A stretch of DNA of 64,000 nt from Phycisphaerae bacterium (GCA_039683615.1 JBDKRA010000001.1:25958-89957), one strand, 5' to 3'. Positions 2,899-31,002 are shown, numbered from the stretch's first letter. The notes: a model not told the origin generated them from the sequence alone. Numbers and translations are program-made.

Positions 2899-2965
2899 GA
2901 CCCTTCAGCATCAGGGACACGCACAACGGAGTTGTGCGTGGCACCCGTCTCGCCCGCGACACGTT

Positions 2966-10721: not shown

Positions 10722-12482
10722 CTACCGCGACACTACGACAGCGGCCGGCTTGTCGAGGGGCACGTTCAAATAGGCCAAGGCCTGTTCGAGCACCTGCTTG
10801 ACGTAGGGCGCGGCCACCTTGCCCCCATAATACCCTTTTGCCGGGTCGGGCCAATAGACTGAAATCAGGCACACGACTCGCGGGCGGTCGGCCGGGGCGC
10901 CGGCGATGTAGCTGGCGACGTACGCCCCCTCGCGGTAGCCAGCTGGTCCGGGGATCTGGGCGGTGCCGGTCTTGCCGAAGCTCGTCCAGCCGTCGAGGGG
11001 ATACTCCTTGGCCGTGCCCGCCTCGACGACGCCGCGCATGGCCGCCACGGTGGCGGCCGCGGTCGCCGGCGAGATCACGCGCCGCACGGCCTTGGGCATG
11101 CCGCGGTGGATCACCGTCCCGTCGGGGCGGCAGATGTAGTCCACCAGTTGCGGCTCCATCAGCACCCCGCCGTTGGACAGGGCGCTAAAGGCCATGGCAA
11201 GCTGCAGCGAGGTGGTCGATATTTCCTGCCCGAACGGCACGCGGCGAAGGCTGTAGCCGTCCCACTTGCGCAGCGGGCGGACGATCCCGCCGCTCTCGCC
11301 AGGCAGGGGAATGCCCGTGCGGTCGGCCAGGCCGAACGCCTTGGCCCACTCGAACAGGCGGCGATTGCCCATCATCTCGCCGACTTTGGCCATCCCGATG
11401 TTGCTGGAGAACTTGATCACATCCGCCAGCGAGAGCATGCCATAGCTCTGCCCGTGGTCGGTGATCGTGCCGCCCTTGGGCGCGCGGTAGTGGCCGTTCT
11501 CGCAGTTGAGCATGGTGTTGTAGTTCAACAATCCCTGCTCAACGGCCGCGGCGGCGAAGATCGGTTTCATGGCGCTGCCGGCCTCGACGGGCATGCTGAT
11601 GCAGCGATTAACCCGGCTGTCGGCGGGGGAATCCTGGTAGGCCGCCGGGTTGAACGTCGGCACCGACGCCATCGCCAGCACCTGCCCGGTCCAGGGGTCG
11701 ACGATCAGGCCGCTGCCCCATTTGCCGCCGTAGGTGCTGACGGCCTGGGCGAGGGCCTCTTCCAGCATCGCCTGCATCGACAGGTCGATGCTGAGGAAGA
11801 CGTTGTACCCGTCGCGGGGCGGGGTGGACTTGGATTCGTCGCTCCAGATCGCCCGCCGCCGCGCGTCGGCCAGCATCACTTTCTCGCCGTCGGTAGGCAG
11901 CAGGCTCTGGCGGAACGACAACTCCGCCCCTGCCCCCGGCTCGCCGTTGGGGCGGCGGTAACCCAGCACCGTCGCGGCCAGCGACCCGTTGGGGTATTCC
12001 CGCTGCCAGTGGTAGTCGATGCCGACAGCCGGCAGCTTGAGGTTGTGCACGTTCTGCGCCTGCTGCTCGTCGAGGGCTTTGACGACGCGAACGTAGCCCG
12101 ACTCGCGGCGCTGCAGCAGCGTTTCCTGAAGGGCCGGGACGAACTTGATGCGATCCTGCGTCGACATGCCCACGGCCTTGCTGATGCCGATGGCCACTTC
12201 GTCCGACTGGCTTTCCTTGAGCATGCGCGGATCGACGTAGACCCCGGGGACCCGGCGACTGATCACCACCGAGGCATAGCGCCGGCGCTCGCGGGCGAAG
12301 ATGCTGCCCGGGCGACCCGGCAGCGGCACGGTCATGGTCTGCTGCACGCGGATGCGCGCCTGGGCGTTCTCATGCCCCGTGCGGACCAGCGACGCCTGCG
12401 CGCAGGCGAAGCCTGCCAGCGCCACCGCGACGACCGCGAAGGCCGCTTCCAGCCGCCATCGCCCCGGCACCGGAGATATCAT
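10722..12482 (-). CDS. ftsI: Peptidoglycan D,D-transpeptidase (class B PBP; FtsI/PBP3-like)
   Basis: 586 aa with an N-terminal TM segment, a dimerisation region and a transpeptidase active site SAMK (SxxK). It occupies the ftsI position between ftsL and murE. Confidence 0.85.
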   Translation of the reverse strand: MISPVPGRWRLEAAFAVVAVALAGFACAQASLVRTGHENAQARIRVQQTMTVPLPGRPGSIFARERRRYASVVISRRVPGVYVDPRMLKESQSDEVAIGISKAVGMSTQDRIKFVPALQETLLQRRESGYVRVVKALDEQQAQNVHNLKLPAVGIDYHWQREYPNGSLAATVLGYRRPNGEPGAGAELSFRQSLLPTDGEKVMLADARRRAIWSDESKSTPPRDGYNVFLSIDLSMQAMLEEALAQAVSTYGGKWGSGLIVDPWTGQVLAMASVPTFNPAAYQDSPADSRVNRCISMPVEAGSAMKPIFAAAAVEQGLLNYNTMLNCENGHYRAPKGGTITDHGQSYGMLSLADVIKFSSNIGMAKVGEMMGNRRLFEWAKAFGLADRTGIPLPGESGGIVRPLRKWDGYSLRRVPFGQEISTTSLQLAMAFSALSNGGVLMEPQLVDYICRPDGTVIHRGMPKAVRRVISPATAAATVAAMRGVVEAGTAKEYPLDGWTSFGKTGTAQIPGPAGYREGAYVASYIAGAPADRPRVVCLISVYWPDPAKGYYGGKVAAPYVKQVLEQALAYLNVPLDKPAAVVVSR

Positions 12483-13672: not shown

Positions 13673-14578
13673 TCACGTCATTTCCAGGCACCGCAGCTTG
13701 GCCGAGCGGCTCCGCGGGTTGCGGGCAATCTCGTCCTCGTCTGCCGTCCTGGGCTTTTTCGTTATCAGTGCGGCCCGGCCCGCTCGGGCCAGGTCCGCGA
13801 AAGCGTGTTTGACACGCCGGTCCTCTAGTGAGTGAAAGCTGATAATGCACGCCCGCCCGCCGCGGCCGAGCACCTCCGGCAGCGCCGCAAGCAGGGCGTC
13901 GAGATTCTCCATCTCGCCGTTGACGGCGATCCGAAGCGCCTGGAAGGTCCGCGTGGCCGGGTGTACGCCCCGCCGCGTCGCCTTGGCTGCCCCGGGGTAT
14001 GCCCGCAAAACGATCGCTGCCAGTTCGCCCGTGGTGGTGATGGGCTTGCTCTGCCGAGCCAGCACGATCGCCCGGGCAATCCGGCGGCTGTACCGCTCCT
14101 CGCCGTAGGCGTAGATCAGGTCGGCCAGTTCGCCTTCGTCCATCTTGGCTACCAGGTCCGCCGCGGCGGGTCGGCCGCTGGTGCGGTCCAGCCGCATGTC
14201 CAGCGGGCCGTCCTGCGAGAAGCTCAGGCCGCGGGCGGGGTCGTCGAGTTGGCTCGAGGCCACGCCCAGGTCGGCCAGCAGGGCGTCAACGCGGGAGATG
14301 CCGGCCTCATCGAGCACAGTTCGGGCTTGGGAGAAGTTGCCTTGGAAGAGCCGCACAGGTTTTCCCAGCGGCTTGAGCCGCTGACCCGCGCGGACGAGAT
14401 TGTCGGCGTCCAGGTCCATTCCGATCAGTTGAGCATCGGCGGGGGCTTGACTTAACAGCAGCTCCGCGTGGCCGCCCAGGCCTACGGTGCAGTCCAGAAA
14501 CACATGCCGCCCCGGACCGCCCAGAACTTCCAGAACGGTCTGGGGCATCACGGGGCTATGAGCGGCCACGCCGGTCAT
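13673..14578 (-). CDS. rsmH: 16S rRNA m4C1402 methyltransferase RsmH (MraW)
   Basis: 301 aa: N-terminal VMPQTVLEVL then DCTVGLGGHA (SAM-binding), which are RsmH hallmarks. Confidence 0.9.
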   Translation of the reverse strand: MTGVAAHSPVMPQTVLEVLGGPGRHVFLDCTVGLGGHAELLLSQAPADAQLIGMDLDADNLVRAGQRLKPLGKPVRLFQGNFSQARTVLDEAGISRVDALLADLGVASSQLDDPARGLSFSQDGPLDMRLDRTSGRPAAADLVAKMDEGELADLIYAYGEERYSRRIARAIVLARQSKPITTTGELAAIVLRAYPGAAKATRRGVHPATRTFQALRIAVNGEMENLDALLAALPEVLGRGGRACIISFHSLEDRRVKHAFADLARAGRAALITKKPRTADEDEIARNPRSRSAKLRCLEMT

Positions 14579-14927
14579 GGCCTTGACCTCGCCTCAGTCG
14601 CCGGCGGCACAGGCCGCCGCCGCCACGGCCACGTGAGGAGAGAAAGCGACCCGGGAGTAGCTACCGCCCAGTCCCTGAACCCGCCGGAGCTTCTGAACTA
14701 AATCCAGCAGGCGCTGCCGGTGCCCATCGGTCATCAAAGATGGCCGGTTAAGCTGTCGGCGAAGTTCGGCCAGGCTCACTGGAGGGCATCCTTGCCTTCC
14801 GGCAGAGTGGCTCTGGGATGTTTGAGAGGTGGCCATTTCAGTCCGTTGCTCCCGGGACCGCTTTCCTTTTATTAAGTCCGCCGCGGGCGTGGTCAACCAT
14901 GACCGGCCCGCGGGCGATTCACACGCC

Positions 14928-15407
14928 TCAATCCATCGAGGCGCCTTGTTTATTCTGTGCATTCAGCGCGTCGGCCGCGTCGTAAAGCATGTCGCCGTAG
15001 ACGGGCAGTTCGCTGTCGACTCGAGCGTCCCATTCCTCGCTGGGCCAGATCTCGATGTGATCGTCCATTCCCAGCAACGTCACCTTGTCCGCAATCACCG
15101 CCCGCTGCATCGACTTTTCCGGAAGCACCACGCGGCCCTGGGAGTCGCCCTTGAGCACCCGCGCCATCGCGAAGAACAGATCGATCTTCCGCTTGTCGCG
15201 AGTGGGCAGGGGCGAACGCTTCAGGCTGGCCGCCAGGCGGCGGTAATACAGGTCCGGATACAGCCACAAATGCCGGTCGGGACCCAGAACCAGGATGAAA
15301 TCCTTGCCGTCTTCCTTGGGATCCATGCAGTCGCGCAACGCCGCACTGATAGCCAAGCGATGCTTGGCATCGATGAGTTGCTCGAACTCTCCCACGAAGA
15401 GCGCCAT
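14928..15407 (-). CDS. mraZ: Transcriptional regulator MraZ
   Basis: 159 aa with two MraZ/SpoVT-AbrB half-domains (DAKHRLAISAALR... and DSQGRVVLPEKSM...). It is the first gene of the dcw cluster. Confidence 0.85.
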   Translation of the reverse strand: MALFVGEFEQLIDAKHRLAISAALRDCMDPKEDGKDFILVLGPDRHLWLYPDLYYRRLAASLKRSPLPTRDKRKIDLFFAMARVLKGDSQGRVVLPEKSMQRAVIADKVTLLGMDDHIEIWPSEEWDARVDSELPVYGDMLYDAADALNAQNKQGASMD

Positions 15408-15445
15408 TCAAGGTTCTTTCCGCCACCGGTTGGGATGGCTAGGGA

Positions 15446-15474
15446 ATATTAACCACTAACAGGGAAACCGACAA
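15446..15474 (-). promoter_or_regulatory. Candidate sigma70-type promoter for the mraZ/dcw operon
   Basis: On the minus strand, TTGTCG-17 nt-TAATAT lies about 40 nt upstream of the mraZ ATG. Nearby (15431-15445) are GGGA repeats with 10-bp spacing that resemble MraZ boxes. Confidence 0.3.
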
Positions 15475-15546
15475 CAAAAAAAAGCGATTCACCACAAAAA
15501 AATCTGTCCTGTCTCTGTTAGGCCTTCCCTGGCCGGCCGCCGTTTT

Positions 15547-15575
15547 GTGGCATGGGCGTCTCGCCCATGCTCCCC
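15547..15575. repeat. REP-like hairpin (CATGGGCG-TCT-CGCCCATG)
   Basis: A perfect 9-bp stem. It is the reverse complement of the 22783-22810 copy. Confidence 0.8.
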
Positions 15576-15907
15576 GGTGCCCATGGCGACCCACGAAAAA
15601 CAGAAACGTGTGTCGCCATGCCACCCGCGCCGTCTGCCGTGGCCTTCCCTGGCCTGGCCGATCTTCCATGACCTGTGCGGCCGCACGCGCCGCGCCCCCG
15701 CCGGGGCATCCATGCCCGGCCAAGACACCCGATAGCGCCCAACCAATCTCTGGCCGGGCGCTGACTCACTAGAGAAACTTGTCAATCAGCGCGATACTCA
15801 AGCCAGGGCGCTATCGGCCCTTCGTTACGTTATCGGTCCTTCAGTAAAAATTGCGTTATTGAATTTTCGCAGCCGATTTGCCCCCCCCGCCCACGCTGCT
15901 GCCGGTA

Positions 15908-16016
15908 ACTCGAACACGAATGTCACGAATTGGGCGAATGGAGCAAAAACCAAGAATCGAAAGATCTCTTCTTCTCCGTCCTCATTCGTTTCATTCGTGA
16001 CATTCGTGTTCTCTTG
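15908..16016. mobile_element. MITE-like element, family A, copy 1
   Basis: About 30-bp terminal inverted repeats CGAACACGAATGTCACGAAT...ATTCGTTTCATTCGTGACATTCGTGTTCTC. The same element occurs at 16112-16217 and 59438-59552. Confidence 0.65.
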
Positions 16017-16290
16017 GGACAGGCAGCAAGATACCTGCGCCGCTACTTCCTGCCGCCGGCGATGCGCGGGGCGTCGAATGTAGTTGTCAGAATCGTGACA
16101 TCGCCAGCAATGCGAACACGAATGACACGAATAAAACGACTGGGCAAAAAGAAAGAACCCCAAGTCAGTTTCTTTTCCCCGTCCTCATTCGTTTCATTCG
16201 TGACATTCGCGTTCTCTTGGGACAGGCAGCAAGGCACCTGCGCCGCTACTTCCTGCCGCCGGCGATGCGCGGGTCGTCGAAGTAGTTGTC
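15911..16290. repeat. Tandem direct duplication (two units of about 180 bp: 15911-16089 and 16115-16290)
   Basis: Both units end with the last 45 nt of the cupin gene (encoding ...PRIAGGRK*) followed by a MITE-like hairpin. Unit 1 creates the artefactual ORF 16043..16492. Confidence 0.8.
16112..16217. mobile_element. MITE-like element, family A, copy 2
   Basis: Same terminal inverted repeats as copy 1. It lies in the second unit of the tandem duplication. Confidence 0.65.
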
Positions 16291-16761
16291 GCCGGCAAGG
16301 CTGGGTTTGCTTACTTCCAGCAGCAGCGCGCTGCCGAGGCCGGTGAAACGGTGGCGGTAGCGCGGGCCGGGGGGCATGGCCAGCACGTCGCCGGCCTTCA
16401 TGATCCTCGTGCGGGCCCCGACGGTCATGCGGACCTTGCCCTGGGCGACGAAAAACGTCTCGTGCTTCATCTTGTGGCAGTGCATGGGGCATGTCTGGCC
16501 GTCAAAGAGGAAGAGGTACTTGCCGCAGTAGCCGGCTTCCACCTCGTTGGCGATCCAGACCTCGATCAGGCCGGTCTTGTCGAACTCGCCCAGGCCAAAG
16601 TCGATGATCAGCGGCTCGGCCGCCGCCGGCAGGGCCACCTTCCACGCCTTCATCTGCCGGCGAAACGCCGCCATCGCCGCCGAGGCGGCGCGGCCGGTGA
16701 TCGACACGTACACGCCCTTGTTCTTCTGCGCGCCGACGGCGGATTTTGGCTTCTGCGTCAT
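16246..16761 (-). CDS. Cupin-fold sugar isomerase (D-lyxose isomerase family-like)
   Basis: Perfect cupin motif 1 in KYLFLFDGQTCPMHCHKMKHETFFVAQG, matching the KYL..GQ..P.H.H..K.E signature of the D-lyxose ketol-isomerase family. The start was chosen at MTQKPK (ATG at 16761) rather than the track extension to 16830. Confidence 0.7.
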   Translation of the reverse strand: MTQKPKSAVGAQKNKGVYVSITGRAASAAMAAFRRQMKAWKVALPAAAEPLIIDFGLGEFDKTGLIEVWIANEVEAGYCGKYLFLFDGQTCPMHCHKMKHETFFVAQGKVRMTVGARTRIMKAGDVLAMPPGPRYRHRFTGLGSALLLEVSKPSLAGDNYFDDPRIAGGRK

Positions 16762-16838
16762 GTGTCGCTCCTTGTATTGGGGGACTCTACCACAAAGGCA
16801 CGAAGGCACAAAGAGACGGGGAAACAGCAATCAACAAC

Positions 16839-16925
16839 TTTGCCACAGAGATCACAGAGAACACGAAGCGACGGCGAAAAGCTTGAAGCAACTCCTTCGT
16901 GTTCTTCGTGATCTCTGTGGCAAAG
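16839..16925. mobile_element. MITE-like hairpin, family B, copy 1
   Basis: TTTGCCACAGAGATCACAGAGAACACGAAG - about 30 nt - CTTCGTGTTCTTCGTGATCTCTGTGGCAAAG: a 29-bp inverted repeat with one mismatch. A related copy is at 17695-17779 and a fragment at 4107-4135. Confidence 0.7.
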
Positions 16926-16952
16926 GTTTCTTCTGCCCTTCAGCCGTGGGCA

Positions 16953-17135
16953 CTACTTCGCGGCCTTGGCTCGCTTGCGGCGGAGGGGATTGATATCGAT
17001 GATCTCGCCATCCTTATAGACGTACAGTGGCGAGCCGGTACGCTTGGCCAGTTCGCGAGCGGCCTTGGCGGCTCTCTTCATCGCAGGCCACGATCCCACG
17101 ATATCTGGATCGCTCGATTGGATTGTCTTCTTCAT
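16953..17135 (-). CDS. Small basic protein (60 aa), translationally coupled downstream of the zeta-toxin-like kinase; candidate partner or antitoxin
   Basis: ATGA overlap with the upstream gene's stop. Sequence MKKTIQSSDPDIVGSWPAMKRAAKAARELAKRTGSPLYVYKDGEIIDINPLRRKRAKAAK. Local GC is lower (about 55%). Confidence 0.5.
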   Translation of the reverse strand: MKKTIQSSDPDIVGSWPAMKRAAKAARELAKRTGSPLYVYKDGEIIDINPLRRKRAKAAK

Positions 17136-17668
17136 GGATTTTCTCCCGAGGCAACCAGTTTCAACTCGGGGCCTGAATTATCATACATCACCCAGCTATT
17201 TACCAGTTCACAGTATATTGTCCGAAGATTCCGCAGGCCCGAGTCAAATCGGCGGCGAATCACCGGTACGGGGACGTGGTGCCCGCCTTGAGCAACACGC
17301 ATCTTCACTCTAGCCACGGCAAAGTCAGCCGAAGGAAGGCTCAGGAAGACCAACTTCACATGGTAGCCCGCTTTCTTCCACCGCTGGATATGCCGCACGT
17401 AGTTTCTGCCGCTGAGGGTTGTCTCGAACGCAAAGCTTTCGCCTCGGCCATATCTGCGGGCAATCTCCTTGAGCATGATCTTTCCAGCCTGGATCGCCAC
17501 GCGCTCAGGCGCAAAGGGCGAGAGACCTCGGGCGATCAGGTCCGCGTTAATGAAGTCCGGACATCCGGCCTCGCGCGGCAGAAACTGCTCGGCAAAGGTC
17601 GTCTTCCCGGCCCCGTTGGGACCGGCGATAATGACGATCTTCTTGCCAGATTGAATTGGCCTGCTCAT
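17132..17668 (-). CDS. Zeta-toxin / COG4185-family P-loop kinase (AAA_33-like)
   Basis: 178 aa with Walker A IIAGPNGAGKTTFAEQF and the overall pattern of zeta-toxin-domain ATPases. Local GC is about 55%, against about 68% in the flanking genes. Confidence 0.8.
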   Translation of the reverse strand: MSRPIQSGKKIVIIAGPNGAGKTTFAEQFLPREAGCPDFINADLIARGLSPFAPERVAIQAGKIMLKEIARRYGRGESFAFETTLSGRNYVRHIQRWKKAGYHVKLVFLSLPSADFAVARVKMRVAQGGHHVPVPVIRRRFDSGLRNLRTIYCELVNSWVMYDNSGPELKLVASGENP

Positions 17669-17694
17669 AGCTCCTCTCAGCTTCGGGGAAACAA

Positions 17695-17779
17695 CTTTGC
17701 CACAGAGATCACAGAGAACACGAAGGGGTTTTTCAAAAACAAAGTTCTTCTCTGTGGTCTCTGTGATCTCTGAGGCAAA
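17695..17779. mobile_element. MITE-like hairpin, family B, copy 2 (degenerate)
   Basis: TTTGCCACAGAGATCACAGAGAACACGAAGGGG...CTTCTCTGTGGTCTCTGTGATCTCTGAGGCAAAG. It sits between the toxin-like gene start and the GT4 gene end. Confidence 0.6.
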
Positions 17780-17824
17780 GCTTCTCCTCTGCGATCTTCG
17801 CGACCTTTGCGGTGAATCGCTTTA

Positions 17825-18940
17825 TCACCCCGCCACTTGCTCGTAGAGGGCCTCGTGGGCAGCGACGGTTTTTTCGATCGGATACGTCGCCCGCACGTGC
17901 TCGCGGGCGGCCGCGCCGAGGGCTTGGCGCAGGGGCGTATCGGCGGCCAGTTCGAGGATCGTCTCCGACAGGGCGACCGAGTCGCCGCTGTCGACGATGA
18001 TGCCCGTTTGGCGGTCGGATACCAGGTCGCTCAGGTGGCCGCTCTTGCTGACGATCACCGGCAGGCCCACGGCCATCGCTTCGGCGGCCGCCATTCCGAA
18101 GGCTTCCCAGCGGCTGGGCAGGACCATGATGTCCAGGGCGTTGAGCAGGGCCGGGACATCGTCGACGAAATCGAGCAGGCGGCAGCTCCGCCCGCCCTCG
18201 CCGTAGCGGATGAAGTTCCGCACGATGGGCTGTCGCGGCCCCTGGCCGGCGATCACGACGTTGACCGGGTTGCCCCGCGCCCCGAGGTGGCTGATGGCCG
18301 ACAGCAGCGTGTCGATGCCCTTCTGCGCGTTGAGCCGCCCGACGAACCCCACGACGATCTGCCGCTCGTCGACGCCCCACTCGCTGCGCACGGCTTGTCG
18401 AAGGGCCGGTGCGGGGGCGAAGCGCACAGTGTCGATCCCGTCGGGGATCAGGGTGTACTTTTCCTGCGGCAGGCCGCTGCGCCGCTGGTGGAACTTCCGC
18501 ACCGACTCGCTGACGCACACCAGGCGGTCGCAGTAGCCGCCCAGAAACCGCGTGAAGGCGAACTCCCACGGGCGGAACCGACCCGCCGGCGTGCGGGCGG
18601 TGTGGATCAGGTGCGGCACGGCGGCCAATCGCGCGGCCGGTCGCCCGATCAGATCTGCCTGGTACAGGTGCGTGTGGACGATGTCGGGTCGCAGGCGGCG
18701 GAGCCGCTCGGCCAGCCCGCGCAGGCGCAGCAGGTGCCACGCCCGCGTCATGCCCAGGACGCTGACGTCCACGCCGGCGTCCTGGAACCATCGGCTGGCC
18801 GCGCCGCCGCGCAGCGCCAGCACCTGCACGTCGAAGCGCTCGCGGCTGAGGCGGCGCGACATCTCGCAGACGCTCCGGGCCGCCCCGCTGGGGCGCAGGT
18901 CGCCGATCAGGTGACATATTCGTATCTTCGAGTCGCTCAA
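17825..18940 (-). CDS. Glycosyltransferase family 4 (GT-B fold)
   Basis: 371 aa with the C-terminal GT4 signature EAFGMAAAEAMAVGLPVIVS (E-x7-E motif). Confidence 0.85.
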   Translation of the reverse strand: MSDSKIRICHLIGDLRPSGAARSVCEMSRRLSRERFDVQVLALRGGAASRWFQDAGVDVSVLGMTRAWHLLRLRGLAERLRRLRPDIVHTHLYQADLIGRPAARLAAVPHLIHTARTPAGRFRPWEFAFTRFLGGYCDRLVCVSESVRKFHQRRSGLPQEKYTLIPDGIDTVRFAPAPALRQAVRSEWGVDERQIVVGFVGRLNAQKGIDTLLSAISHLGARGNPVNVVIAGQGPRQPIVRNFIRYGEGGRSCRLLDFVDDVPALLNALDIMVLPSRWEAFGMAAAEAMAVGLPVIVSKSGHLSDLVSDRQTGIIVDSGDSVALSETILELAADTPLRQALGAAAREHVRATYPIEKTVAAHEALYEQVAG

Positions 18941-19995
18941 ATCCGGCTATCCTTGGCGGCCGCCACCATCTCGTCGATCGTGGTCGTAGCGGCGGCGCAG
19001 ACACGATCGCCTGCGCCGTAGTAAACCACGATGCGCCCGTCTTCGTCCACCGTCAGTCCGTTGGAAAAGACGCAGTTGGCGTAGATGCCCGACATTTCGT
19101 AGGTCTCGCGGGGCTCCAGGACGGGCCTGGCGCTGTGGCTGATGATCCGCTGAGGCCGTTCGAGTTCGCTGAGCATCGCGCCGAGATAATATCGGCCTTG
19201 TTCGTCGGCGGCATGGAAGATTTCCAGCCATCCCGCCGGCGTCTCGATGGGCGCGGCCCCGCAGCCGACGCGCTGGCCCATCCACGTGCCCGGCCGCGGG
19301 GCCAGCGTCATCTCGTGGCGGCCCCAGCATTCCAGGTCCGGCGACCAGCCCGTCCAGATGCACGGCGGATTGAAGACGCTGCGGTACGGGCGGTGGCGGC
19401 AGACGTACATGTTCTGGATCTTTCGCGGGAAGATGCACACGTCTTTCTGGTACGGCGGGAAGACCACGCCGTGGCGGTAGAACTCGACGAAGTCGCTGGT
19501 CGAGGCCAGCGAGACCGTCACCCCGCGGTCGCTGACGGAGGTGTACGTGATGTAATACTGCCCGTTGGTGAACGTGATGCGCGGGTCTTCGCAGCCGTAC
19601 GCTTCGTACTCGTTGATGGGGAAGATCGCCGGTTTGCGGTCGAAGCTGAAGTGCTCGCCGTCGCGGCTGCGGGCGATCCGCAGGTGCGACAGGCTCGACA
19701 GGAGCATGCGCCCGCGATAGTGATACCCGCGGGCGTCGGGCATCGTCAGGTCCGGGTCGCTGACGGAGATGTGCCGCACGTCGACGGCGTCGGCCGCGGC
19801 GTCATAGACCAGGTAGCTGATGTAATGCGGCTGCGGGATCGGCCGCTCGCCCACGCGAACCAGCAACAGCGTCTCGTCGCCCAGGCGCACTGCCGCGGGG
19901 TTGAGCGTGCAGAGCACCTCCAGGTCGCCCCGCGTCGGGGCAACGTCCTGCGGCGTGAGCAGCGGATTGGCGGCCAGTCGTTGCAGCAATGGCAT
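18937..19995 (-). CDS. GH130-family (DUF377) glycoside hydrolase or phosphorylase-like protein
   Basis: 352 aa with the conserved GCEDPRI motif and a five-bladed beta-propeller-like repeat pattern typical of GH130. It has a 4-nt overlap with the GT4 gene, so the two form an operon. Confidence 0.75.
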   Translation of the reverse strand: MPLLQRLAANPLLTPQDVAPTRGDLEVLCTLNPAAVRLGDETLLLVRVGERPIPQPHYISYLVYDAAADAVDVRHISVSDPDLTMPDARGYHYRGRMLLSSLSHLRIARSRDGEHFSFDRKPAIFPINEYEAYGCEDPRITFTNGQYYITYTSVSDRGVTVSLASTSDFVEFYRHGVVFPPYQKDVCIFPRKIQNMYVCRHRPYRSVFNPPCIWTGWSPDLECWGRHEMTLAPRPGTWMGQRVGCGAAPIETPAGWLEIFHAADEQGRYYLGAMLSELERPQRIISHSARPVLEPRETYEMSGIYANCVFSNGLTVDEDGRIVVYYGAGDRVCAAATTTIDEMVAAAKDSRI

Positions 19996-20020
19996 GTTGC
20001 ACCCCTTTGGGGAAGTTGTG

Positions 20021-20152
20021 AGTTGTGAGTGGTGAGTTCAGGAACTCCTTCCCGGGCGGTTCCCCCTCACAACACACAACTCACAACTCTCTTACTTCCC
20101 CCTCACAACTCACAACACACAACTCACAACTCACAACTCACAACTCACAACT
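20021..20152. repeat. Heptanucleotide microsatellite arranged as an inverted pair: (GAGTTGT)n followed by (TCACAAC)n
   Basis: Read directly from the sequence: GAGTTGT x2 plus variants, then two blocks of ACAACTC/TCACAAC repeats of 2 and 7 copies. It lies immediately upstream of the GH130-GT4 operon start at 19995 and downstream of the DUF72 gene. Confidence 0.8.
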
Positions 20153-20918
20153 CCCGCACAATGCGGGCGAACGCCTGCGCATTCGCGGCCGCCTGACCGG
20201 CGTGGCAGTTGTTGAAGAACGCGTAGACCTTTTCGGCCGGCGGCTCCAGCGACGACCAGCCGCGGGCGATCTCCTCCAGCTCGGCGTCGCTGTAATTGTA
20301 ATCATATCGGGCCGCGTATCCGGCGTGCCACTTGGCCGCGTCGCGCGAGTGAAGGCGGAAGTACCCCGCCCCCGCCGTCGCGGCCGGGGCGTGATGGTAC
20401 AGCTCGGCCAGGTCCGGAACGTCCGGAACCACCAGCAGCACGCCCCGCTCACGCAGCGACTGCGTGGCCGCCTCGTCCTGCCACGAGCAATGCCGAAACT
20501 CCACCGCCAGCGGAACCGACGCCATGTCGTCGCAAACGGCCGCAAGGTACTTGCGATTGGCCACCGTTCGCCGGAACGACTGCGGGAATTGCAGCAGCAC
20601 CCCGGCCAGCTTGCCCGCGGCCGACATCGGCGCCAGGGCCTCGAGGAACGGCCTCGCCGCCTCGCGAAGCTGCTTGTGCGTGGTATCCTGGTTGGCCTTG
20701 ACCCAGAACTCGAACCCCGCCGGGCTCTTGCGGGCCAGGGCGTCCATAGTCGCGGCCGCGGGCATCCGGTAGTACGTGAAGTTCAACTCGACAGCCGAGA
20801 ACTGCCGCGCGTACAAATCAAACATGTCCGCCGCTCGGGCCTGGACGGGATAGAAATTACCGACCCAGTCCCCGAACGAATACCCGCACGTGCCGATGAT
20901 AAACCGCGTCTGGTTCAT
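20145..20918 (-). CDS. DUF72 (UPF0759) family protein
   Basis: 257 aa. N-terminus IIGTCGYSFGDW...FYP and the overall pattern are typical of DUF72 TIM-barrel proteins. Confidence 0.75.
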   Translation of the reverse strand: MNQTRFIIGTCGYSFGDWVGNFYPVQARAADMFDLYARQFSAVELNFTYYRMPAAATMDALARKSPAGFEFWVKANQDTTHKQLREAARPFLEALAPMSAAGKLAGVLLQFPQSFRRTVANRKYLAAVCDDMASVPLAVEFRHCSWQDEAATQSLRERGVLLVVPDVPDLAELYHHAPAATAGAGYFRLHSRDAAKWHAGYAARYDYNYSDAELEEIARGWSSLEPPAEKVYAFFNNCHAGQAAANAQAFARIVREL

Positions 20919-21101
20919 ATCTCGAAGTCATCCAGCATCATCATTTACCAGTCACTGCGCCTGCCCCACGCCCGCCAACAAGTTAATACTACACAGGCAA
21001 ACAGCCATCTCAAAGGTGGCAGGGATCAGTAATCGCTAATCGGTGATGGGCGATAGCTGATAGCCGAAAGCTGAAAGCTGACAGCCGCCACCATAATTGT
21101 C

Positions 21102-21140
21102 ATTCCTTGCACTTTGTTGTACTTTTCACAGCGACTTCGC
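21102..21140. repeat. Left 39-bp terminal inverted repeat of a 3.6-kb low-GC island
   Basis: ATTCCTTGCACTTTGTTGTACTTTTCACAGCGACTTCGC. Its reverse complement recurs at 24700-24739 with 2 mismatches. Confidence 0.75.
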
Positions 21141-21523
21141 GGACACGCGCGTCCAATTGCAGCATGCGCGGACCCACATAGCCCACGTTCCCCTCGTCAA
21201 TTGGAAATTCCCAATTGGAAATTGGAAATGGCTAAGCTGCTGTTTCTCTTCTGCCTTGCGGATTGGCGGCCGCGAAGGCATAATGCCCCGCAGGGATTTT
21301 TCCGACAGCGGGACTGCCCCCATCGTCTTTGAAAGGCCGCAATGCCGACGCTGAACTGGATAGGTAAGGATGCCGTCGCTGACCGCACGGATTCTCGAAG
21401 CCCTCTCGCCCCACGCCGGACCCAAGGTCATCTACGGCGAAGGCTCCCGCCTGGGCCCCGCGCGACTAAAACGCCTCAATATCACGTTCAAACAAGTGCC
21501 CTATGAGATCAAGGTGAGCTGAG

Positions 21524-22570
21524 ATGGGTGAAGGACATTTGACAGCAGATAATTCCGAAAATCGCAATTGCGCGCTTTGCGGAAAGGAAGCCCGATTCAG
21601 CGAGTTCCACTTCGTCAACAGACAGCCCATAAAAATGTTTGATTATGACTGCCCAGGGTGCGGGCGATATCTATTGGATTGGACTGTAGGCGCGCGGCTA
21701 AAGCACGATAAGACTGGTTTGGCTTTTAAGCTTGCATGCCTTGTACGAGAGCGCCGTATTCGCCACGACGAGGGGCTATTTGCCATCCTCAGCAAGGCCC
21801 CAGCACAGGATATATCCAAGCTAGTTGATCGGGCATGGCTGGTAGATGAGTTAGCTGCAGATTTTCCCGGCCCGACGGCCATGATCGATCGCACTCTATT
21901 GAATCTATCCAAACTCACGCAACACCCCATGGGAGTGGTATGCCTGTCAAATTGCGACAGGGCCTACTTAACCTTTTGCGATGAAAGAGCTATCCAGGAT
22001 TCCGTAAGCTACTTAGAAGCAAAGGGACTCATACGCGACGCGGGAAGTTCGACTACTTCTACCGAAATCACAATCACTCCAGACGGGTGGGATCGCATCG
22101 AAAAGATTTCAGAAGTGGCGGCTGAGTCAAAACAGGCATTTGTTGCAATGTGGTTTAATGAGTCGACAAGGTGCTTCTTTGATGTGGGAATTGAACCCGC
22201 AGTACGAGAAACTGGGTTTATCTGCAAAAGAATCGACCGCGTCGAGCACATCAACAAGATTTGCGACGAGATTGTCGCGGAAATTCGAAAGAGCCGCTTC
22301 CTAGTAGCCGATTTTTCAGCCGGGTGCTGTAAAATGTGCGGAGAGTGCCAGCATCAGAAGGACTGCAAAGATCAAGTTCGTCCTCGTGGCGGAGTCTATT
22401 TCGAGGCCGGGTTCGCGATGGGGCTGGGCATTCCAGTAATCTGGACAATCCGCAAGGAGCAGTTGGAGCAGGTTCATTTCGACATTCGTCAATACAACTT
22501 TATCGCCTATGAGAATCCAGAAGACTTGAAAGATCGCCTATTCAACAGAATCAGGGCGACAATTCATTGA
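21524..22570 (+). CDS. Zinc-ribbon / winged-helix / nucleoside 2-deoxyribosyltransferase-like (NDT/DNPH1-type Rossmann) multidomain protein; candidate defence or nucleotide-processing effector
   Basis: 348 aa. N-terminal 4-Cys zinc ribbon (CALCG...CPGCG). Central helix plus KGLI plus beta-wing (ITITPDGWDRIE) that looks like a winged HTH. C-terminal QAFVAMWFNEST...FLVADFS...GGVYFEAGFAMGLGIPVIW matches the NDT/DNPH1 catalytic-Glu motif, with an inserted CCxxCxxC cluster. GC is about 49%, against about 68% in the host. Confidence 0.7.
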   Translation: MGEGHLTADNSENRNCALCGKEARFSEFHFVNRQPIKMFDYDCPGCGRYLLDWTVGARLKHDKTGLAFKLACLVRERRIRHDEGLFAILSKAPAQDISKLVDRAWLVDELAADFPGPTAMIDRTLLNLSKLTQHPMGVVCLSNCDRAYLTFCDERAIQDSVSYLEAKGLIRDAGSSTTSTEITITPDGWDRIEKISEVAAESKQAFVAMWFNESTRCFFDVGIEPAVRETGFICKRIDRVEHINKICDEIVAEIRKSRFLVADFSAGCCKMCGECQHQKDCKDQVRPRGGVYFEAGFAMGLGIPVIWTIRKEQLEQVHFDIRQYNFIAYENPEDLKDRLFNRIRATIH

Positions 22571-22716
22571 TGAATTCGTGCATGGACAACACAGAGGCCC
22601 GAATGGGCCGGCAGACGATAGCCGGGGGTGGAGCGGGCGGCGTTTTTGCGGCCGCGGAGCCCCCGGTCCGTCCCCTCGCGGCGTCAAGCCCTGAAGGGGC
22701 GGCACAAGATTGCCCT

Positions 22717-22870
22717 GTGTCGCGGACATCTTGTCCGCGCGTGCCGCGGGCGTCTCGCTTGCGCATCTGGGAGAAGAAGACGGGGAGCATGGGCGAGACG
22801 CCCATGCCACGGGGGAGGGCAAGATGCCCTCGGCACGCGAGGGCGGGACGCCCGCGACACGATTCGGCCA
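22717..22870. repeat. Cluster of three REP-like hairpins inside the island
   Basis: GTGTCGCGGACATCTTGTCCGCGCGTG (22717-22743); GGGGAGCATGGGCGAGACGCCCATGCCAC (22783-22810); GCGAGGGCGGGACGCCCGCGACACG (22836-22870). Confidence 0.75.
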
Positions 22871-22891
22871 TCGGCGACGGCGACCATTTTG

Positions 22892-23029
22892 TCGATATCA
22901 ACAAAATGGTCCCCAACGACAGGGAAATCAAGATGTGCTCGCCCGCCCGATCATACCATCTTCCCGACATCGGGAAGAAGGTCTGCCTGGGCGACGCGGA
23001 CCATTTCGCGCGTGCGCGCAAAATGGTCC
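22892..23029. promoter_or_regulatory. Two 30-bp palindromes upstream of fic (candidate operators)
   Basis: GACCATTTTGTCGATATCAACAAAATGGTC (22892-22921) and GGACCATTTCGCGCGTGCGCGCAAAATGGTCC (22998-23029). Each is preceded by GGCGACG-N-CGACC. The second ends 32 nt before the fic ATG. Confidence 0.5.
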
Positions 23030-23060
23030 TCCCGGACTGCCGGCAGAAGGAGCGACTCTG

Positions 23061-24143
23061 ATGGTTTTTGATCCGTCCAAACCGTACAACGACCTGCCGC
23101 CACTGCCGCCGGCGGCCGAGATTGACACCAAAGCAATCCTGCGCAAATGCATTTCGGCAAACCGGGCATTGGCGGAACTCAAGGCCGGCGGCAGGCTTAT
23201 CCCTAACCAGACGATCCTCATCAACGCCATTCCTCTGCAGGAAGCCCAGGCCAGCAGCGAGATCGAGAACATCGTCACCACGCAGGATGCCCTTTACCGC
23301 GCCACGCTGCACCCCGAGAAAGCGGACGCGGCCACCAAGGAAGTGCTCAACTACCGTCAGGCGCTCAAGGCGGGTTGGGAATCGCTGCGCACGCGGCCGC
23401 TGAGCACACGAACGTTTGTGGAAGTCTGCCGGGGTCTGCTTGACGTGGATATCGACATCCGCCGCACGCCCGGAGTCACGCTGACCAACAAGGCCACGGG
23501 CAAAGTCATCTACACTCCGCCCGAGACGGAGTCGCTCATCCGCGATCTCTTGGGCAACCTCGAGAAGTTCCTGCATGACGACGCCGCCGGTCTCGACCCG
23601 CTCATCCGCCTGGCGGTGGCCCATTACCAGTTCGAGGCTATTCATCCCTTCGGCGACGGCAACGGGCGCACCGGCCGGATCATCAACATCCTGTACCTGA
23701 TCGAGAAAGGGCTGCTGGAGATTCCGGTGCTTTACCTGAGCGGGCACATCATCCAGAACAAGAACCAGTACTACCGCCTCCTTCGCGCGGTGACCGAGAA
23801 GGGCGCCTGGGAGGACTGGATTCTGTACATGCTCGATGCCGTCGAAGAAACCGCCCGCTGGACGGCAGGAAGGATCGCCGGGATTCGCCAGTTGCTGGAT
23901 GAAACGGCGCGGCTCTGCCGGGAGAAGCTCCCAACCGTATACTCGCGTGAGCTTGTCGAACTTCTTTTCGTGCAGCCATACTGCCGCATCGAGAATCTGG
24001 TGGAAAATGGCATTGCCAAGCGGGTGACGGCGTCAAAATACCTGGCAAGCCTGGAAAAAGAGGGTATTATTTCTGGCATAAAAGTCTGGAAAGAAACCCT
24101 TTATGTCAACAATGGCCTGCTTGAACTCCTCGTAAGGCGATAG
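23061..24143 (+). CDS. fic: Fic-family protein (AMPylase-type; class II with an N-terminal inhibitory motif, plus a C-terminal winged HTH)
   Basis: 360 aa with the catalytic motif HPFGDGNGRTGR and the inhibitory (S/T)xxxE(G/N) motif SSEIEN upstream of it. The start at MVFDPSK (23061) was chosen over the long track ORF starting at 22710, which reads through REP repeats. Confidence 0.85.
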   Translation: MVFDPSKPYNDLPPLPPAAEIDTKAILRKCISANRALAELKAGGRLIPNQTILINAIPLQEAQASSEIENIVTTQDALYRATLHPEKADAATKEVLNYRQALKAGWESLRTRPLSTRTFVEVCRGLLDVDIDIRRTPGVTLTNKATGKVIYTPPETESLIRDLLGNLEKFLHDDAAGLDPLIRLAVAHYQFEAIHPFGDGNGRTGRIINILYLIEKGLLEIPVLYLSGHIIQNKNQYYRLLRAVTEKGAWEDWILYMLDAVEETARWTAGRIAGIRQLLDETARLCREKLPTVYSRELVELLFVQPYCRIENLVENGIAKRVTASKYLASLEKEGIISGIKVWKETLYVNNGLLELLVRR

Positions 24144-24149
24144 GAAGTC

Positions 24150-24470
24150 TCATGTTCATGGCGTGAACATGAGAAGGTTATCATGTTCATTCTATAGTCT
24201 TTTTTAGACATGATGTTTGTGCGATACGATGTGGACGCGCGGCGTACATATCTTCAGGATGTGTACAAATTCTCGCGGTTTTCGTACACATGCCGGAACA
24301 TGTCCCAAACCGGGACATGAGGAAGGACGTGTAAAGAAATCGACGTTTTCTTTACACGTTTTGGGAACGTGTAAAGCGGCTTTACACATCCTTCGTCACG
24401 TTCAAGAAGAAGCGTTTTTTGAACATGAGCACTTGGTCATGTACACGGCATGAACATGACGGTTCTTTTT
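24150..24470. other. AT-rich noncoding region with a dense array of short palindromes and hairpins
   Basis: CATGTTCATGGCGTGAACATG; ACATGTCCCAAACCGGGACATG; ACGTGTAAAGAAATCGACGTTTTCTTTACACGT (13-bp arms); GTGTAAAGCGGCTTTACAC; repeated TGAACATGA and TCATGTACA motifs. It lies between the fic stop and the right island inverted repeat. Confidence 0.6.
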
Positions 24471-24699
24471 CCGGATATCAGGAAAAAGAAGATGGTAAGG
24501 CCGGCGGATGAAGGGTGAGAGCGGCGGCTCGGGCAGACTTGCGTATTTCGTGCGGGTTTTACTGGTTGTAAAGCCAAAACGCATCGGAAATGCACCCAAA
24601 AAGCACCTAAAAGGCACCCAAACCTGGTTTATTCCGATTTAGCCCGGACATGTCACCGCAGTCGATCGTGAACCTTTGATGCCCCGTTGTTGCACTTTT

Positions 24700-24739
24700 G
24701 CGAAGGTGCTGTGAAAAGTACAACAAAGTGCAAGGAAGT
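24700..24739. repeat. Right terminal inverted repeat of the 3.6-kb island
   Basis: GCGAAGGTGCTGTGAAAAGTACAACAAAGTGCAAGGAAGT is the reverse complement of the 21102-21140 repeat (2 mismatches). Confidence 0.75.
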
Positions 24740-24894
24740 GGAAGCGCGGGTAGAGGCGGGGTTGTCCGGCGGGATGGGGGTTGGCGGCTGATTCTTCGCC
24801 GGGAATGCAACATTGGCCCCGCTGGGGCGTTGAGATTATTATAATGATCGTTCCGGCGGCTGGTGGGGCGGCGGGGATTTGGCGAGGTGCATGT

Positions 24895-26823
24895 ATGGGA
24901 CGATGCAGATCGTGGGCGGTTGCGGCTGGGCTGATCGGCCTGCTGGCTTGGTGGGCGGATGGGGCTGCGGCTGCGCCGACGCCCCGGCCGGCGCCTAAGC
25001 CGGGGCCTAAGCCGGCGCCCAGGCCGGGGCCTGGAGCGGCCTCTCGGCCGGCGTCTCGTCCAGCGTCACAGCCGGCGTCGCGGCCGGCGTCTAGACCTGC
25101 CGTCGTAGTGGCGGCGGCTGCCTCTGGGCCGGCTACGGCGGCTGGGATTTCGCCTCTGGCGGCCGAGGCGCAGAAGCTTGACGATGCGGCACGCGTCGAG
25201 CGGGCCAAGAAGGCCTCCGGCGAGTTTGAACGCATCTTCGGCAAGCACGTCCGCGCCGTCCTGGCCACGCCGGCGGTGCAGGACGATCTGGCCTTGGCGG
25301 AAAAGCTCATGGCGATGCAGCCGCAGGCGGCCGACGACGTGTTCTTCGCCGCGGCGATGTGCGAGAAGGCGTACGATCTGTCGGCGCCCAGCGCGGCGGG
25401 GCAGACGACGGCCGCGGCGGCGCTGGAGCAGCTGCTCGCGCTGGCGCCGTGGAAGAGCCGGGCCTGGCTCGAGTCGCTCGTCGAGATTCGGCGCAAGAGC
25501 TTCGCGGCCGCCCGCGGCGAGGACCGCACCGCCGAGGGCGACGCCCTCATCGCCGCCACGCTGCGTCTCGCCGAGGCGCTGGCCGACGACGACGCCTTCA
25601 ACGAGGCCTACGAAGTCTGCCACCGCCTGCTGCCCCTGGCCAAGGCGGTCAAGTCGAAGAAGGCCGACGACATCGAGGCCGCCCAGGACCGCTACGCCGC
25701 CCTCAAGCCCATCGGACAGGCGATGGCCGTGCTGCAGATCCGCATCAAGGCCAACCCGGCCGACCAACTCGCCCGCAACGAGCTGATGCGCCTCTACGTC
25801 GCCGAGCGCAACGCCCCGCGCAAGGCCGCCGCCTACCTGACTGCCAAGGCTCCGGCCGACTACCAAGCGAACATCCCCGACGCCCAGCGCAGTCTGGCGG
25901 CGCTGGACGCCGCAGACTGCCTGCGCCTGGGCCTCTGGTACGAAGACCTCATCGACCGCGCCAGCGAGCAGGGCAAAGCCCTCGCCGCCCGACGCTCCCG
26001 AGACTACCTCCAGCAGTACCTCGACCTGCACGAGACCGCCGACGCCACGCGAGCCAAGGCCGCGGCCGCCATCAAGAAACTCGACGCTCTGCTGGCGAGC
26101 CTGGCAGGAAAGAAGACCCACCAGGCCATGAAGTTCGTGCGCACGCTCGATGTCTCTGCCGGGCGGCTGGTCTCCAACCTGCCGATGCACTTCCGCAACC
26201 CCTACGCCCAGCGCACCATCGACCTGTGGATGCTGGCCGGCAAGGACGACGGCATCATCGTCGACCAGGGCGCCTCGCGGGCGGGGATGGTCGTGGGTCT
26301 GTTCAAAAACCGCATCTGCTTCGCCTTCAACGACGCCAAGGAGCACACCCACATCGTCCAGGACGACAAGGGCAACAACCGCACCGAGCCGATCCCCGCC
26401 GCGGTGATCTCGGCGCCGCTGCCGGATCGCGACAAGTGGTGCCACGTCGCCGTCCAGTACGCCAACGGGTACCTGTCGCTCTGGATCAACGGCAAGCTCT
26501 CGGCCGAACGGCAGGTGGGAACCCCCGCCATCCCCGGCGACACCGAGGGCGTGTGCATCGGCGGCGGGTTCGGCTCCAATGCCGGGTACTGGGACGCCAA
26601 GGGATTCGGCGGCAAAGTGGCGGCCGTCCGCTTCTCCAGCCGCGCGCGCTACTCCAAGAACTTCGAGCCCGAGGAGCAGATGGGCACCACCGGCGCGTTC
26701 GCCTTCGTCTGCGCCGACCGACTCTCGACGGGCGAACTCGATCGCTCCACGCGCGACAGCGTCTCGGCCAGCTACATCGTCTGGTCGAGCATCGGCCAGG
26801 TGCGCGTCGTGAACGTCGATTAG
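24895..26823 (+). CDS. Secreted protein with signal peptide, Pro/Ala/Ser-repeat linker, helical region and C-terminal LamG / concanavalin-A-like jelly-roll domain
   Basis: Start chosen at MGRCRSWAVAAGLIGLLAWWADGAAAA (signal peptide). The linker reads PRPAPKPGPKPAPRPGP...SRPASRPASQPASRPASRPA. The C-terminal GIIVDQGASRAGMVVGLFKNRICFAFND...WCHVAVQYANGYLSLWINGK is typical of a LamG fold. Confidence 0.7.
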   Translation: MGRCRSWAVAAGLIGLLAWWADGAAAAPTPRPAPKPGPKPAPRPGPGAASRPASRPASQPASRPASRPAVVVAAAASGPATAAGISPLAAEAQKLDDAARVERAKKASGEFERIFGKHVRAVLATPAVQDDLALAEKLMAMQPQAADDVFFAAAMCEKAYDLSAPSAAGQTTAAAALEQLLALAPWKSRAWLESLVEIRRKSFAAARGEDRTAEGDALIAATLRLAEALADDDAFNEAYEVCHRLLPLAKAVKSKKADDIEAAQDRYAALKPIGQAMAVLQIRIKANPADQLARNELMRLYVAERNAPRKAAAYLTAKAPADYQANIPDAQRSLAALDAADCLRLGLWYEDLIDRASEQGKALAARRSRDYLQQYLDLHETADATRAKAAAAIKKLDALLASLAGKKTHQAMKFVRTLDVSAGRLVSNLPMHFRNPYAQRTIDLWMLAGKDDGIIVDQGASRAGMVVGLFKNRICFAFNDAKEHTHIVQDDKGNNRTEPIPAAVISAPLPDRDKWCHVAVQYANGYLSLWINGKLSAERQVGTPAIPGDTEGVCIGGGFGSNAGYWDAKGFGGKVAAVRFSSRARYSKNFEPEEQMGTTGAFAFVCADRLSTGELDRSTRDSVSASYIVWSSIGQVRVVNVD

Positions 26824-26938
26824 CAGCACGGGCGCGGTGAGCGTCCCAGTCGAGACACGTCCTCTTTTCCGAGTTTCGGGGCGGGGTTCTGCATACGATT
26901 AGACAGGCCGCGGGGCCAGGTTCTAAGAAGGATGCCGG

Positions 26939-30973: not shown

Positions 30974-31002
30974 GGGAGCATGGGCGGGACGCCCATGCCG
31001 CA
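30974..31002. repeat. REP-like hairpin (GCATGGGCG-GGA-CGCCCATGC)
   Basis: AGGGAGCATGGGCGGGACGCCCATGCCGC, lying between the epimerase gene and the EncFtn gene. Confidence 0.8.

Follow-up and report, generated by a model that had tools for sequence, protein, structure and literature searches.

Here, we analysed a stretch of 64,000 nucleotides (hereafter the window) from a Phycisphaerae bacterium (GCA_039683615.1, JBDKRA010000001.1:25958-89957). It holds, between a DUF72 gene and a LamG gene, a segment of 3.6 kb (21102-24739) that is bracketed by an inverted repeat and carries two intact genes: ORF A (open reading frame A), for a zinc-ribbon, winged-helix and NDT-like protein, and a gene for a SoFic-type Fic AMPylase. 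An earlier note on this DNA had taken the segment for a non-autonomous mobile cassette, or the remnant of one, with the repeats as its termini. We think a different account probable: the interval between DUF72 and LamG is a variable defence hotspot, and the repeat arms are old, rearranged repeats and not the ends of a transposon. The hotspot is recognised because the same interval is empty in one related genome and filled with different cargo in another.

The DUF72-LamG site and its inverted repeat

The comparison covers three genomes: that of the window, one close relative (L159), found through the 90% protein cluster of DUF72, and one empty site (L160), found through LamG homologues. Representatives of GTDB found with DUF72 are at most 61% identical and show no DUF72-LamG synteny. 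L159 (GCA_021372275.1) is a metagenome-assembled genome of the Planctomycetaceae, syntenic with the window at 86-91% DNA identity. It has murE, ftsI, mraW and mraZ, further on the cupin, GT4, GH130 and DUF72 genes, then a cargo and then LamG. This cargo comprises a Bro-N gene (PADLOC PDC-S13, E=2e-110), an HNH protein and a Schlafen-like helicase (PDC-S41, 2e-285). In the more distant L160, whose LamG protein is 46% identical to that of the window, 116 bp separate DUF72 from LamG, and the site is empty. GH130 and GT4 stand alongside in all three genomes.

Relative to the empty site, the foreign DNA of the window runs from about 20919 to about 24790, i.e. past both arms of the repeat. On the left it starts with non-coding DNA next to DUF72 (20919-21055) that has no counterpart in L159 or L160, and continues with a spacer, S (21056-21102, minus strand), lying outside the left arm and corresponding to the reverse complement of the spacer that follows the first repeat copy in L159. 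The same core genes thus flank an empty site and variable content, and this content is of a defence type: SoFic, a Type III methyltransferase remnant and a member of the ORF A family in the window, PDC-S13 and PDC-S41 in L159. The claim of foreign, defence-type cargo is therefore sound, and PADLOC, which the earlier note had proposed to run, recovers SoFic (2e-121) and MTase_III (4e-11) in the island. Comparison with relatives, also proposed there, revealed presence/absence variation at the site but no target-site duplication, and neither relative holds the same genes without the flanking repeats.

The earlier description of the segment as a low-GC island with only two genes needs amendment. 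Its G+C content (GC) is indeed low, at 0.55 against 0.65 for the window, 0.66 for DUF72 and 0.70 for LamG, but it is a mosaic: 0.50 in ORF A, 0.66 in a spacer rich in repetitive extragenic palindromic (REP) hairpins (22571-23060), 0.59 in SoFic and 0.44 in an array 3' of SoFic (24144-24500). The DNA at 20919-21102 has a GC of 0.51. Beside the two genes there is a pseudogene of a Type III mod (21342-21522). In a plasmid collection, the fic gene alone finds matches.

The repeat itself is real, with a length of 38 nt and not the 39-40 nt first given: 36 of 38 positions are complementary between 21103-21140 and 24700-24737, the outer 30 nt of both arms are identical, and no similarity, not even a weaker one, extends past 38 nt. 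There are two copies in the window, where 0 are expected by chance. An exact search for a 24-mer of the repeat in genome_contigs, metagenome_contigs and viral_contigs gave 0 matches, though diverged copies would escape it. The other copies that a mobile cassette might have left were thus not found, nor did these searches, which covered 64 kb of this genome, show the repeat to be a common genome-wide REP, the observation that the earlier note thought would undo its reading. The arms lack a target-site duplication, as their flanks, ...ATAATTGTCA and GTGGAAGCGC..., have no common direct repeat. The arrangement is no assembly artefact, since an independent second assembly (L161, GCA_021371965.1) is colinear with window positions 14145-26918, with 2 mismatches in 12,774 bp, and since the repeat is shorter than one sequencing read. 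Both assemblies show one orientation of the segment. As first described, there is no transposase or integrase in the segment, nor within about 10 kb of it, and no frame of its non-coding parts encodes a transposase domain. Rfam and tRNA scans of the window revealed no non-coding RNA and no tRNA attachment site.

We call the left arm c1 (21103-21140, minus strand) and the right arm c2 (24700-24737), the latter forming with an upstream hairpin arm (24678-24699) a unit on the plus strand (24678-24737). L159 also carries two core copies, at L159rc 15528 and 15636, 108 bp apart. They are in direct orientation, that of the right arm of the window, and both lie between the helicase gene and LamG, i.e. 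on one side of a non-homologous cargo. The copy at 15528 is the orthologue of c1, and the c2 unit is colinear with the second copy, within a match of window 24678-26826 to L159rc 15606-17738. The left arm with 47 bp outside it (21056-21139) is the reverse complement of L159rc 15521-15604, i.e. of copy 1 and its spacer, at 87% identity. The boundary of homology does not coincide with the left arm, but runs 47 bp beyond it. Aligned, the four copies form two orthologous pairs, one with c1 and one with c2, each with distinctive flanks. Hence, the duplication of the arms is older than the split between the two genomes, and their near-identity reflects conservation and not recent transposition. These comparisons indicate that the inverted arms are the product of a rearrangement in which c1, along with its spacer, was transferred to the opposite side of the cargo. 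Together with the missing target-site duplication, they leave the idea that the repeats are cassette termini without support.

The core of the repeat, GCTGTGAAAAGTACAACAAAGTGCAAGG (30 nt), is unchanged in all four copies; the alignment has an invariant block of 28 nt, or of 30 nt including two bases that it gaps. The non-coding DNA next to the core is only 77-87% identical between the window and L159. The right arm has a DNA hairpin z-score of -1.9 to -2.4, and the hairpin arm is lost at c1. A LexA box, considered as a candidate identity of the core, was dropped because it did not fit.

In the account that we favour, the cargo would be what remains of a horizontally acquired Type III restriction-modification (R-M) operon, of the order mod - ORF A - res, together with a SoFic module. 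The interior of mod has been lost and res is gone, its place colonised by host REP elements, with ORF A and SoFic left intact. The units c1 and c2 are old paralogous copies of a conserved non-coding repeat that would belong to the scaffold of the island, standing in tandem upstream of LamG in L159 and with c1 and its spacer flipped to the other side of the cargo in the window. Turnover of the cargo would most likely proceed, after horizontal transfer, by recombination in the shared scaffold, i.e. in a promoter segment (P155) on the left and in the c-unit region on the right.

Several points weigh against this account. Promoter and cargo have the same orientation in the window and in L159, and a single inversion linking the two genomes fails since the orientation of the cargo is equal in both. 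Two nested inversions, or excision and re-insertion of c1 with S, are required, in one direction or the other. The 30-nt core, perfectly conserved in four copies, must do something, and a role as recombination site would return the repeats to a story of mobility. The comparison is one with a single close relative and a single empty site. The array lies here 3' of SoFic, a position not explained by simple autorepression. Finally, expression from P155 and binding of SoFic to the array in this organism are predictions from sequence.

Three other explanations of the repeats must be considered. One is that the segment is a non-autonomous, transposon-like cassette, or what is left of it, on whose 38-bp terminal repeats a transposase acted in trans, the tandem of L159 being a later rearrangement; this seems to us very unlikely. 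It would account for an inverted repeat that is highly significant and brackets promoter and cargo; the c units, absent from the empty L160, did come with the inserted DNA, and, as the deletions of mod and res show, genes can have disappeared, a transposase perhaps among them. Yet, beyond the inverted repeat, none of the features of transposons or of miniature inverted-repeat transposable elements that we looked for was seen. The repeats do not lie at the ends of the inserted DNA, which exceeds both arms relative to L160; there is no target-site duplication, no further copy in the window or, by exact 24-mer, in the genome, metagenome and viral collections, and no remnant of a transposase. Nor do the repeats move with the cargo: the homology with L159 passes through the left arm into the 47 bp outside, the copies of L159 are direct and on one side of a different cargo, and the SoFic module of another contig, L139, occurs without such repeats.

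The c units might instead be target sites of a site-specific recombinase encoded elsewhere, allowing inversion and cassette exchange in the manner of integrons or shufflons without a linked recombinase. The invariance of the core beside more divergent neighbours suggests as much, as do the different orientation of a c unit in close relatives and the different cargo between the c units and a shared promoter segment that ends exactly at the ATG; plasmid SoFic genes, moreover, often adjoin integrase or resolvase genes. We nevertheless hold this to be quite unlikely, for a crude search of the 64-kb window and of 20 kb of L159 found no recombinase, the breakpoints lie outside the core, at the junction of S with the DNA preceding c2, and the units occur in two genomes only. 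Of the features of an invertible segment, the repeats are present, but no recombinase was found and the two assemblies of the window genome share a single orientation. That the c units are ordinary regulatory sites, e.g. operators of a host factor for LamG or for the promoter of the island, and that their inversion is incidental, we regard as highly improbable. It is their sequence and not their structure that is conserved, as the lost hairpin arm of c1 illustrates, and c2 lies about 95 bp upstream of a promoter-like site of LamG (24813-24842). But the LamG orthologue in L160 has no c units, and no factor or motif family was identified.

The restriction-modification remnant and ORF A

The decay of the cargo shows in the mod pseudogene (21342-21522, plus strand), recognised with PADLOC and through the Mod C-termini of two other loci, L064 and L061. 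Its first 12 codons (MPTLNWIGKDAV) are joined out of frame to its last 47 codons (LTARILEALSPHAGPKVIYGEGSRLGPARLKRLNITFKQVPYEIKVS, then the stop), and about 500 interior codons are deleted. The tail corresponds to positions 499-541 of 542 in the PADLOC model MTase_III and, at 68% identity, to the C-terminal ends of Mod in L064 and L061. The out-of-frame join and the C-terminal match identify it as a mod pseudogene with a deleted interior. The Res proteins of L064 and L061, used as tblastn queries, have no match in the window. With neither an intact Mod nor a Res, there is no functional R-M system here.

The promoter or 5' leader segment P155 (21191-21345, plus strand) is conserved up to the mod ATG, at 82% identity to L159rc 11197-11334, and the two genomes diverge immediately past this ATG. 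L139, too, has homology to its last 18 bases and to the start of mod. This retained segment probably drives transcription of both ORF A and SoFic. Between DUF72 and its copy of the segment, L159 has about five tandem repeats at intervals of some 63 bp (L159rc 10840-11190), which the window lacks; each holds AATTTCCAATT, the inverse of AATTGGAAATT, which occurs twice at the start of P155 (window 21199 and 21213).

In place of res there is a GC-rich spacer of 490 bp (22571-23060), with REP-type hairpins of the host at 22717-22860 and two palindromes. The REP hairpins of the earlier note are genuine, with copies at at least five other sites of the window (2881-2899, 15547-15576, 30974-30999, 61951-61992 and 63961-63985); an identical stretch of 30 nt is shared by 22781-22810 and 15547-15576, and a short match related to this family also occurs in L159. 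The two palindromes (22879-22914 and 22998-23029) have the same outer arms, GACCATTT...AAATGGTC, and are unique in the window. At 32-180 bp before the SoFic start, they differ in type from the YRTGT pairs of the array described below and are possibly a second operator or an imported element.

ORF A (21524-22570, plus strand, 348 aa) is intact and starts 2 nt past the mod stop. It has 3691 homologues, the best of which, itself excluded, is 54% identical; an exact look-up found neither the ORF A nor the SoFic protein on record. The zinc ribbon, winged helix and NDT-like domain ascribed to it from the start, the last of which also resembles TIR-like N-glycosidase domains, are upheld by alignment, AlphaFold2 and Foldseek. 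In the alignment, a CxxC...CxxC ribbon at the N-terminus is followed by a central region and by a C-terminal domain bearing the invariant motifs FVAMWF, RGGVYFEAG and HFD; E294, in the second of these, is invariant in 33 homologues. In the AlphaFold2 model (mean pLDDT 87), Foldseek relates the C-terminal domain to the CMP N-glycosidase BcmB (4jen, TM score 0.69-0.71), DNPH1 (about 0.63) and SARM1/TIR (about 0.56), and the central domain to MarR-type winged helices. The C-terminal domain has thus the NDT fold and a conserved, putatively catalytic Glu. At the sequence level, solved structures give only weak matches of the CRP winged-helix and zinc-ribbon kinds and none for the NDT-like domain; PF05014 (Nuc_deoxyrib_tr) does not match ORF A at E<=0.01, with some homologues having a precomputed PF05014 assignment, and the PADLOC TIR effector matches weakly (7e-5). 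By analogy with BcmB, DNPH1, TIR proteins and retron Eco1, ORF A would most likely be a DNA-associated N-glycosidase acting on nucleotides or NAD+. Inside the NDT-like domain lies a Cys-rich insert, CCKMCGECQHQKDCKD (residues ~265-287, window 22316-22384), which about two thirds of the homologues in the alignment possess and the others cleanly lack; its part of the model has lower confidence, and it may be a second metal site.

The genomic context of the family is informative. In L064 and L061, mod precedes and res, which encodes ResIII domains, follows the ORF A homologue, and in L059 a Mod C-terminus lies directly upstream of the ORF A homologue. The closest homologue (L001/L002, 54%) follows a mod remnant interrupted by a REP/RAYT element. 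We counted co-directional neighbours in metagenomic loci (26 upstream, 25 downstream): Methylase_S and N6_N4_Mtase are commonest upstream, ResIII, SWI2_SNF2 and HSDR_N downstream, and the remainder are mostly other defence-type domains. From gene order and neighbour families, ORF A is an accessory gene of R-M operons. The intact mod - ORF A - res loci have no comparable flanking inverted repeats.

Decay of the surrounding operon is not peculiar to the window. In L001 (1-1320), a REP-flanked gene for an IS200/RAYT-like tyrosine transposase (374-865) splits mod between GPKVIYGE and ENIMFKQVPYEIKVN; there, mod decayed independently beside an intact ORF A. Several homologues of ORF A (L111, L114, L131 and L096) follow intact Type I HsdS genes, and in L141 a fragment of HsdS (201-746) precedes SoFic. 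The ORF A and SoFic families are hence recurrent passengers of R-M operons of more than one type.

SoFic and its periodic array

The second intact gene (23061-24143, plus strand) encodes a protein of 360 aa with Fic_N, Fic and SoFic-like C-terminal winged-helix domains, identified with Pfam, PADLOC and NCBIfam. Its translation contains the catalytic motif HxFx(D/E)GNGRxxR, as HPFGDGNGRTGR, and the inhibitory motif (S/T)xxxE(G/N), as SSEIEN, which with the three Pfam domains are the marks of SoFic. The PADLOC match covers positions 8-359 of 361. NCBIfam SoFic (NF046030) gives 529.7 bits, a near miss of the equivalog cut-off of 550, and we therefore file the protein as SoFic-type and not as an equivalog. 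It is 60-65% identical to proteobacterial SoFic and 74% to its nearest relative, in L139. It would act as an abortive-infection AMPylase; EF-Tu is the reported target of SoFic in Shewanella.

L139 shares three colinear pieces with the window: the promoter end with the mod start (82%), the SoFic gene (76%) and the first units of the array in the DNA downstream of it (87%). There (2789-2852), a Mod N-terminus, MAKLNWIGKDAAANHHREVG followed by a stop, abuts the ATG of SoFic, and there are no c-type repeats. A mod-linked SoFic module thus exists elsewhere without the repeats. L139 and the contig of the empty site come from the same ENA sample (ERZ24794679), with similar coverage and GC, and may belong to one organism with SoFic at another locus.

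The AT-rich hairpin array of the earlier note is real (24144-24500), yet we think that it was misnamed. It consists of pairs of inverted half-sites, YRTGT-N11-ACAYR or YRTGT-N21-ACAYR (24150-24460), 3' of SoFic. There are seven units (24151-24458) with spacers of exactly 11 or 21 nt and variable inner parts; N21 and N11 units alternate, one period measuring about 70 bp. Elsewhere in the 64 kb there are ten other YRTGT/ACAYR pairs, none of which is spaced by 11 or 21. Arrays with these units, alternation and period precede fic on plasmids of Salmonella (L152, L153) and Mesorhizobium (L151) and on chromosomes of E. coli (L157, L158); in E. coli and Salmonella, the last right half-site takes in the start codon. 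In six other loci (L139, L141, L142, L145, L147 and L149) the units start 0-15 nt past the stop codon, as in the window. The array is hence in the promoter in some lineages and 3' of the gene in others, and its conservation, on the start codon or just past the stop codon, reaches from Enterobacteria to Planctomycetes. Counted over 19 loci, N11/N21 units number 38 in the 17.1 kb that flank SoFic and 5 in 160 kb elsewhere, a 71-fold enrichment.

Hairpins of RNA or single-stranded DNA and REPs of a donor were also considered for the array, and rejected in favour of sites on double-stranded DNA, the E. coli array being a promoter. We favour sites for a dimer since the two spacings differ by one helical turn and since the inner parts of the arms are not complementary in E. 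coli. The array has the form of an operator, i.e. inverted half-sites with a long, helically phased spacer beside fic, and its units would be bound by the C-terminal winged helices of a SoFic dimer. The SoFic dimer probably binds the array next to its gene. In keeping with this, a SoFic dimer was reported to bind the first 100 bp upstream of its own gene (bioRxiv 10.64898/2026.07.09.737422), the related Fic-HTH (helix-turn-helix) protein CccR protects a pair of inverted boxes of 10 bp that are separated by 26 bp (PMC9755527), and a Fic-HTH enzyme of Coxiella is stimulated by DNA binding (PMC10628234). The toxicity of E. coli Sofic was reported to be neutralised by a downstream ORF of 47 aa, with a protein that could not be purified (PMC12249575).

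One might speculate further, with a proposal in two parts that we make jointly and consider rather unlikely. In the first, the array would be an integral part of the SoFic system that tethers or titrates the toxin dimer, and its loss or competition for it during infection would release or activate the toxin. In the second, the 30-nt c units and the promoter segment ending at the ATG would be the borders of a platform for the exchange of defence cassettes, either independent of a recombinase or served by one in trans. If the array tethers SoFic, the antitoxin effect ('AS1') reported for DNA downstream of E. coli Sofic might be partly one of DNA in cis.

Some other features deserve mention. Downstream of a Marinobacter plasmid SoFic (42% identity; L156, 3650-3970) there is a different periodic array, of GACGGTCAAATTTGACCGTC and GTTGTGGNCGCGNCCACAAC palindromes repeated three times at intervals of about 105 bp. 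Between the array of the window and the right arm lie two tandem repeats of 22 nt, CCAAAANGCAC... (CCAAAACGCATCGGAAATGCAC / CCAAAAAGCACCTAAAAGGCAC; 24574-24617; direct repeat family D6), with no counterpart in L159. About 4 kb from the island, between cupin and GT4, the window carries a zeta-toxin-like / AAA_33 gene (178 aa) with an upstream partner of 60 aa (16953-17668); L159 has instead, between the cupin gene and mraZ, a pair of PIN and RHH genes (14204-14877). This is a second, small variable toxin-antitoxin spot.

Implications and known systems

For genome scanning, these results show that a highly significant inverted repeat around low-GC cargo is insufficient to call a mobile element: here, one close relative and one empty site overturned that reading. 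With this locus, chromosomal defence hotspots gain an example from a Planctomycete. The locus also draws attention to an uncharacterised winged-helix / NDT-like family with thousands of members, typically embedded in Type III and Type I R-M operons, and to SoFic genes, which in different phyla are accompanied by a periodic array of inverted half-sites with wide spacing; this array is a concrete candidate operator for the recently reported DNA binding of SoFic. We see modest novelty in this cross-phylum operator-like array and in the scaffold made of invariant c units and a promoter bounded by the ATG.

As in the chromosomal defence islands of E. coli, Pseudomonas and Vibrio, the same core genes flank an empty site or unrelated cargos, and the window locus shares with them atypical composition, decayed systems and mosaic structure. 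It differs in having no integrase, tRNA or prophage/satellite backbone, and in its non-coding borders, i.e. the promoter segment up to the ATG and two invariant 30-nt repeats. The two inverted 38-nt copies, some 3.6 kb apart around passenger genes, resemble the ends of transposons of the Tn3 family and of others with repeats of about 38 bp, as well as those of their miniature derivatives. Yet, Tn3-type ends are ruled out by the absence of the GGGG...TAAG signature, and the window also lacks the 5-bp duplication, a transposase or resolvase and other copies, with direct copies in L159. The likeness to Type III mod-res operons lies in the recognisable N- and C-terminus of Mod and in ORF A directly after the mod stop, as in L064 and L061, the difference in a mod reduced to a frameshifted deletion remnant and the absence of res.

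ORF A shares with NDT-like and TIR-like effectors, i.e. the HTH-NDT effector of retron Eco1 (Ec86), BcmB/MilB, DNPH1 and TIR NADases, a winged helix before an NDT-fold domain and a conserved Glu in a GxxxExG-type motif. It differs from them by an additional N-terminal zinc ribbon and the Cys-rich insert, and from retron Eco1 by a locus without reverse transcriptase or multicopy single-stranded DNA. We take it to resemble the HTH-NDT effector of that retron, with no claim of membership.

SoFic corresponds, by its three domains and by its catalytic and inhibitory motifs, to the single-gene system of that name in PADLOC and DefenseFinder (S. oneidensis SO_4266, E. coli Sofic). In contrast to these, the window gene lies behind an R-M remnant, probably uses the R-M promoter and has its array on the 3' side; no small gene like AS1 of E. 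coli was recognised at it. The unit architecture of the array is, for its part, identical to that of the fic promoter arrays of E. coli and Salmonella. The operator of CccR, the Fic-HTH protein of Yersinia pseudotuberculosis, is AGATAATCAT-N26-ATGATAATCT (PMC9755527). It is a single site, whereas the array has YRTGT half-sites, spacings of 11 and 21 and many units in a 70-bp period. In both cases, the half-sites are inverted and widely spaced, an arrangement that would suit a dimer with distant DNA-binding helices.

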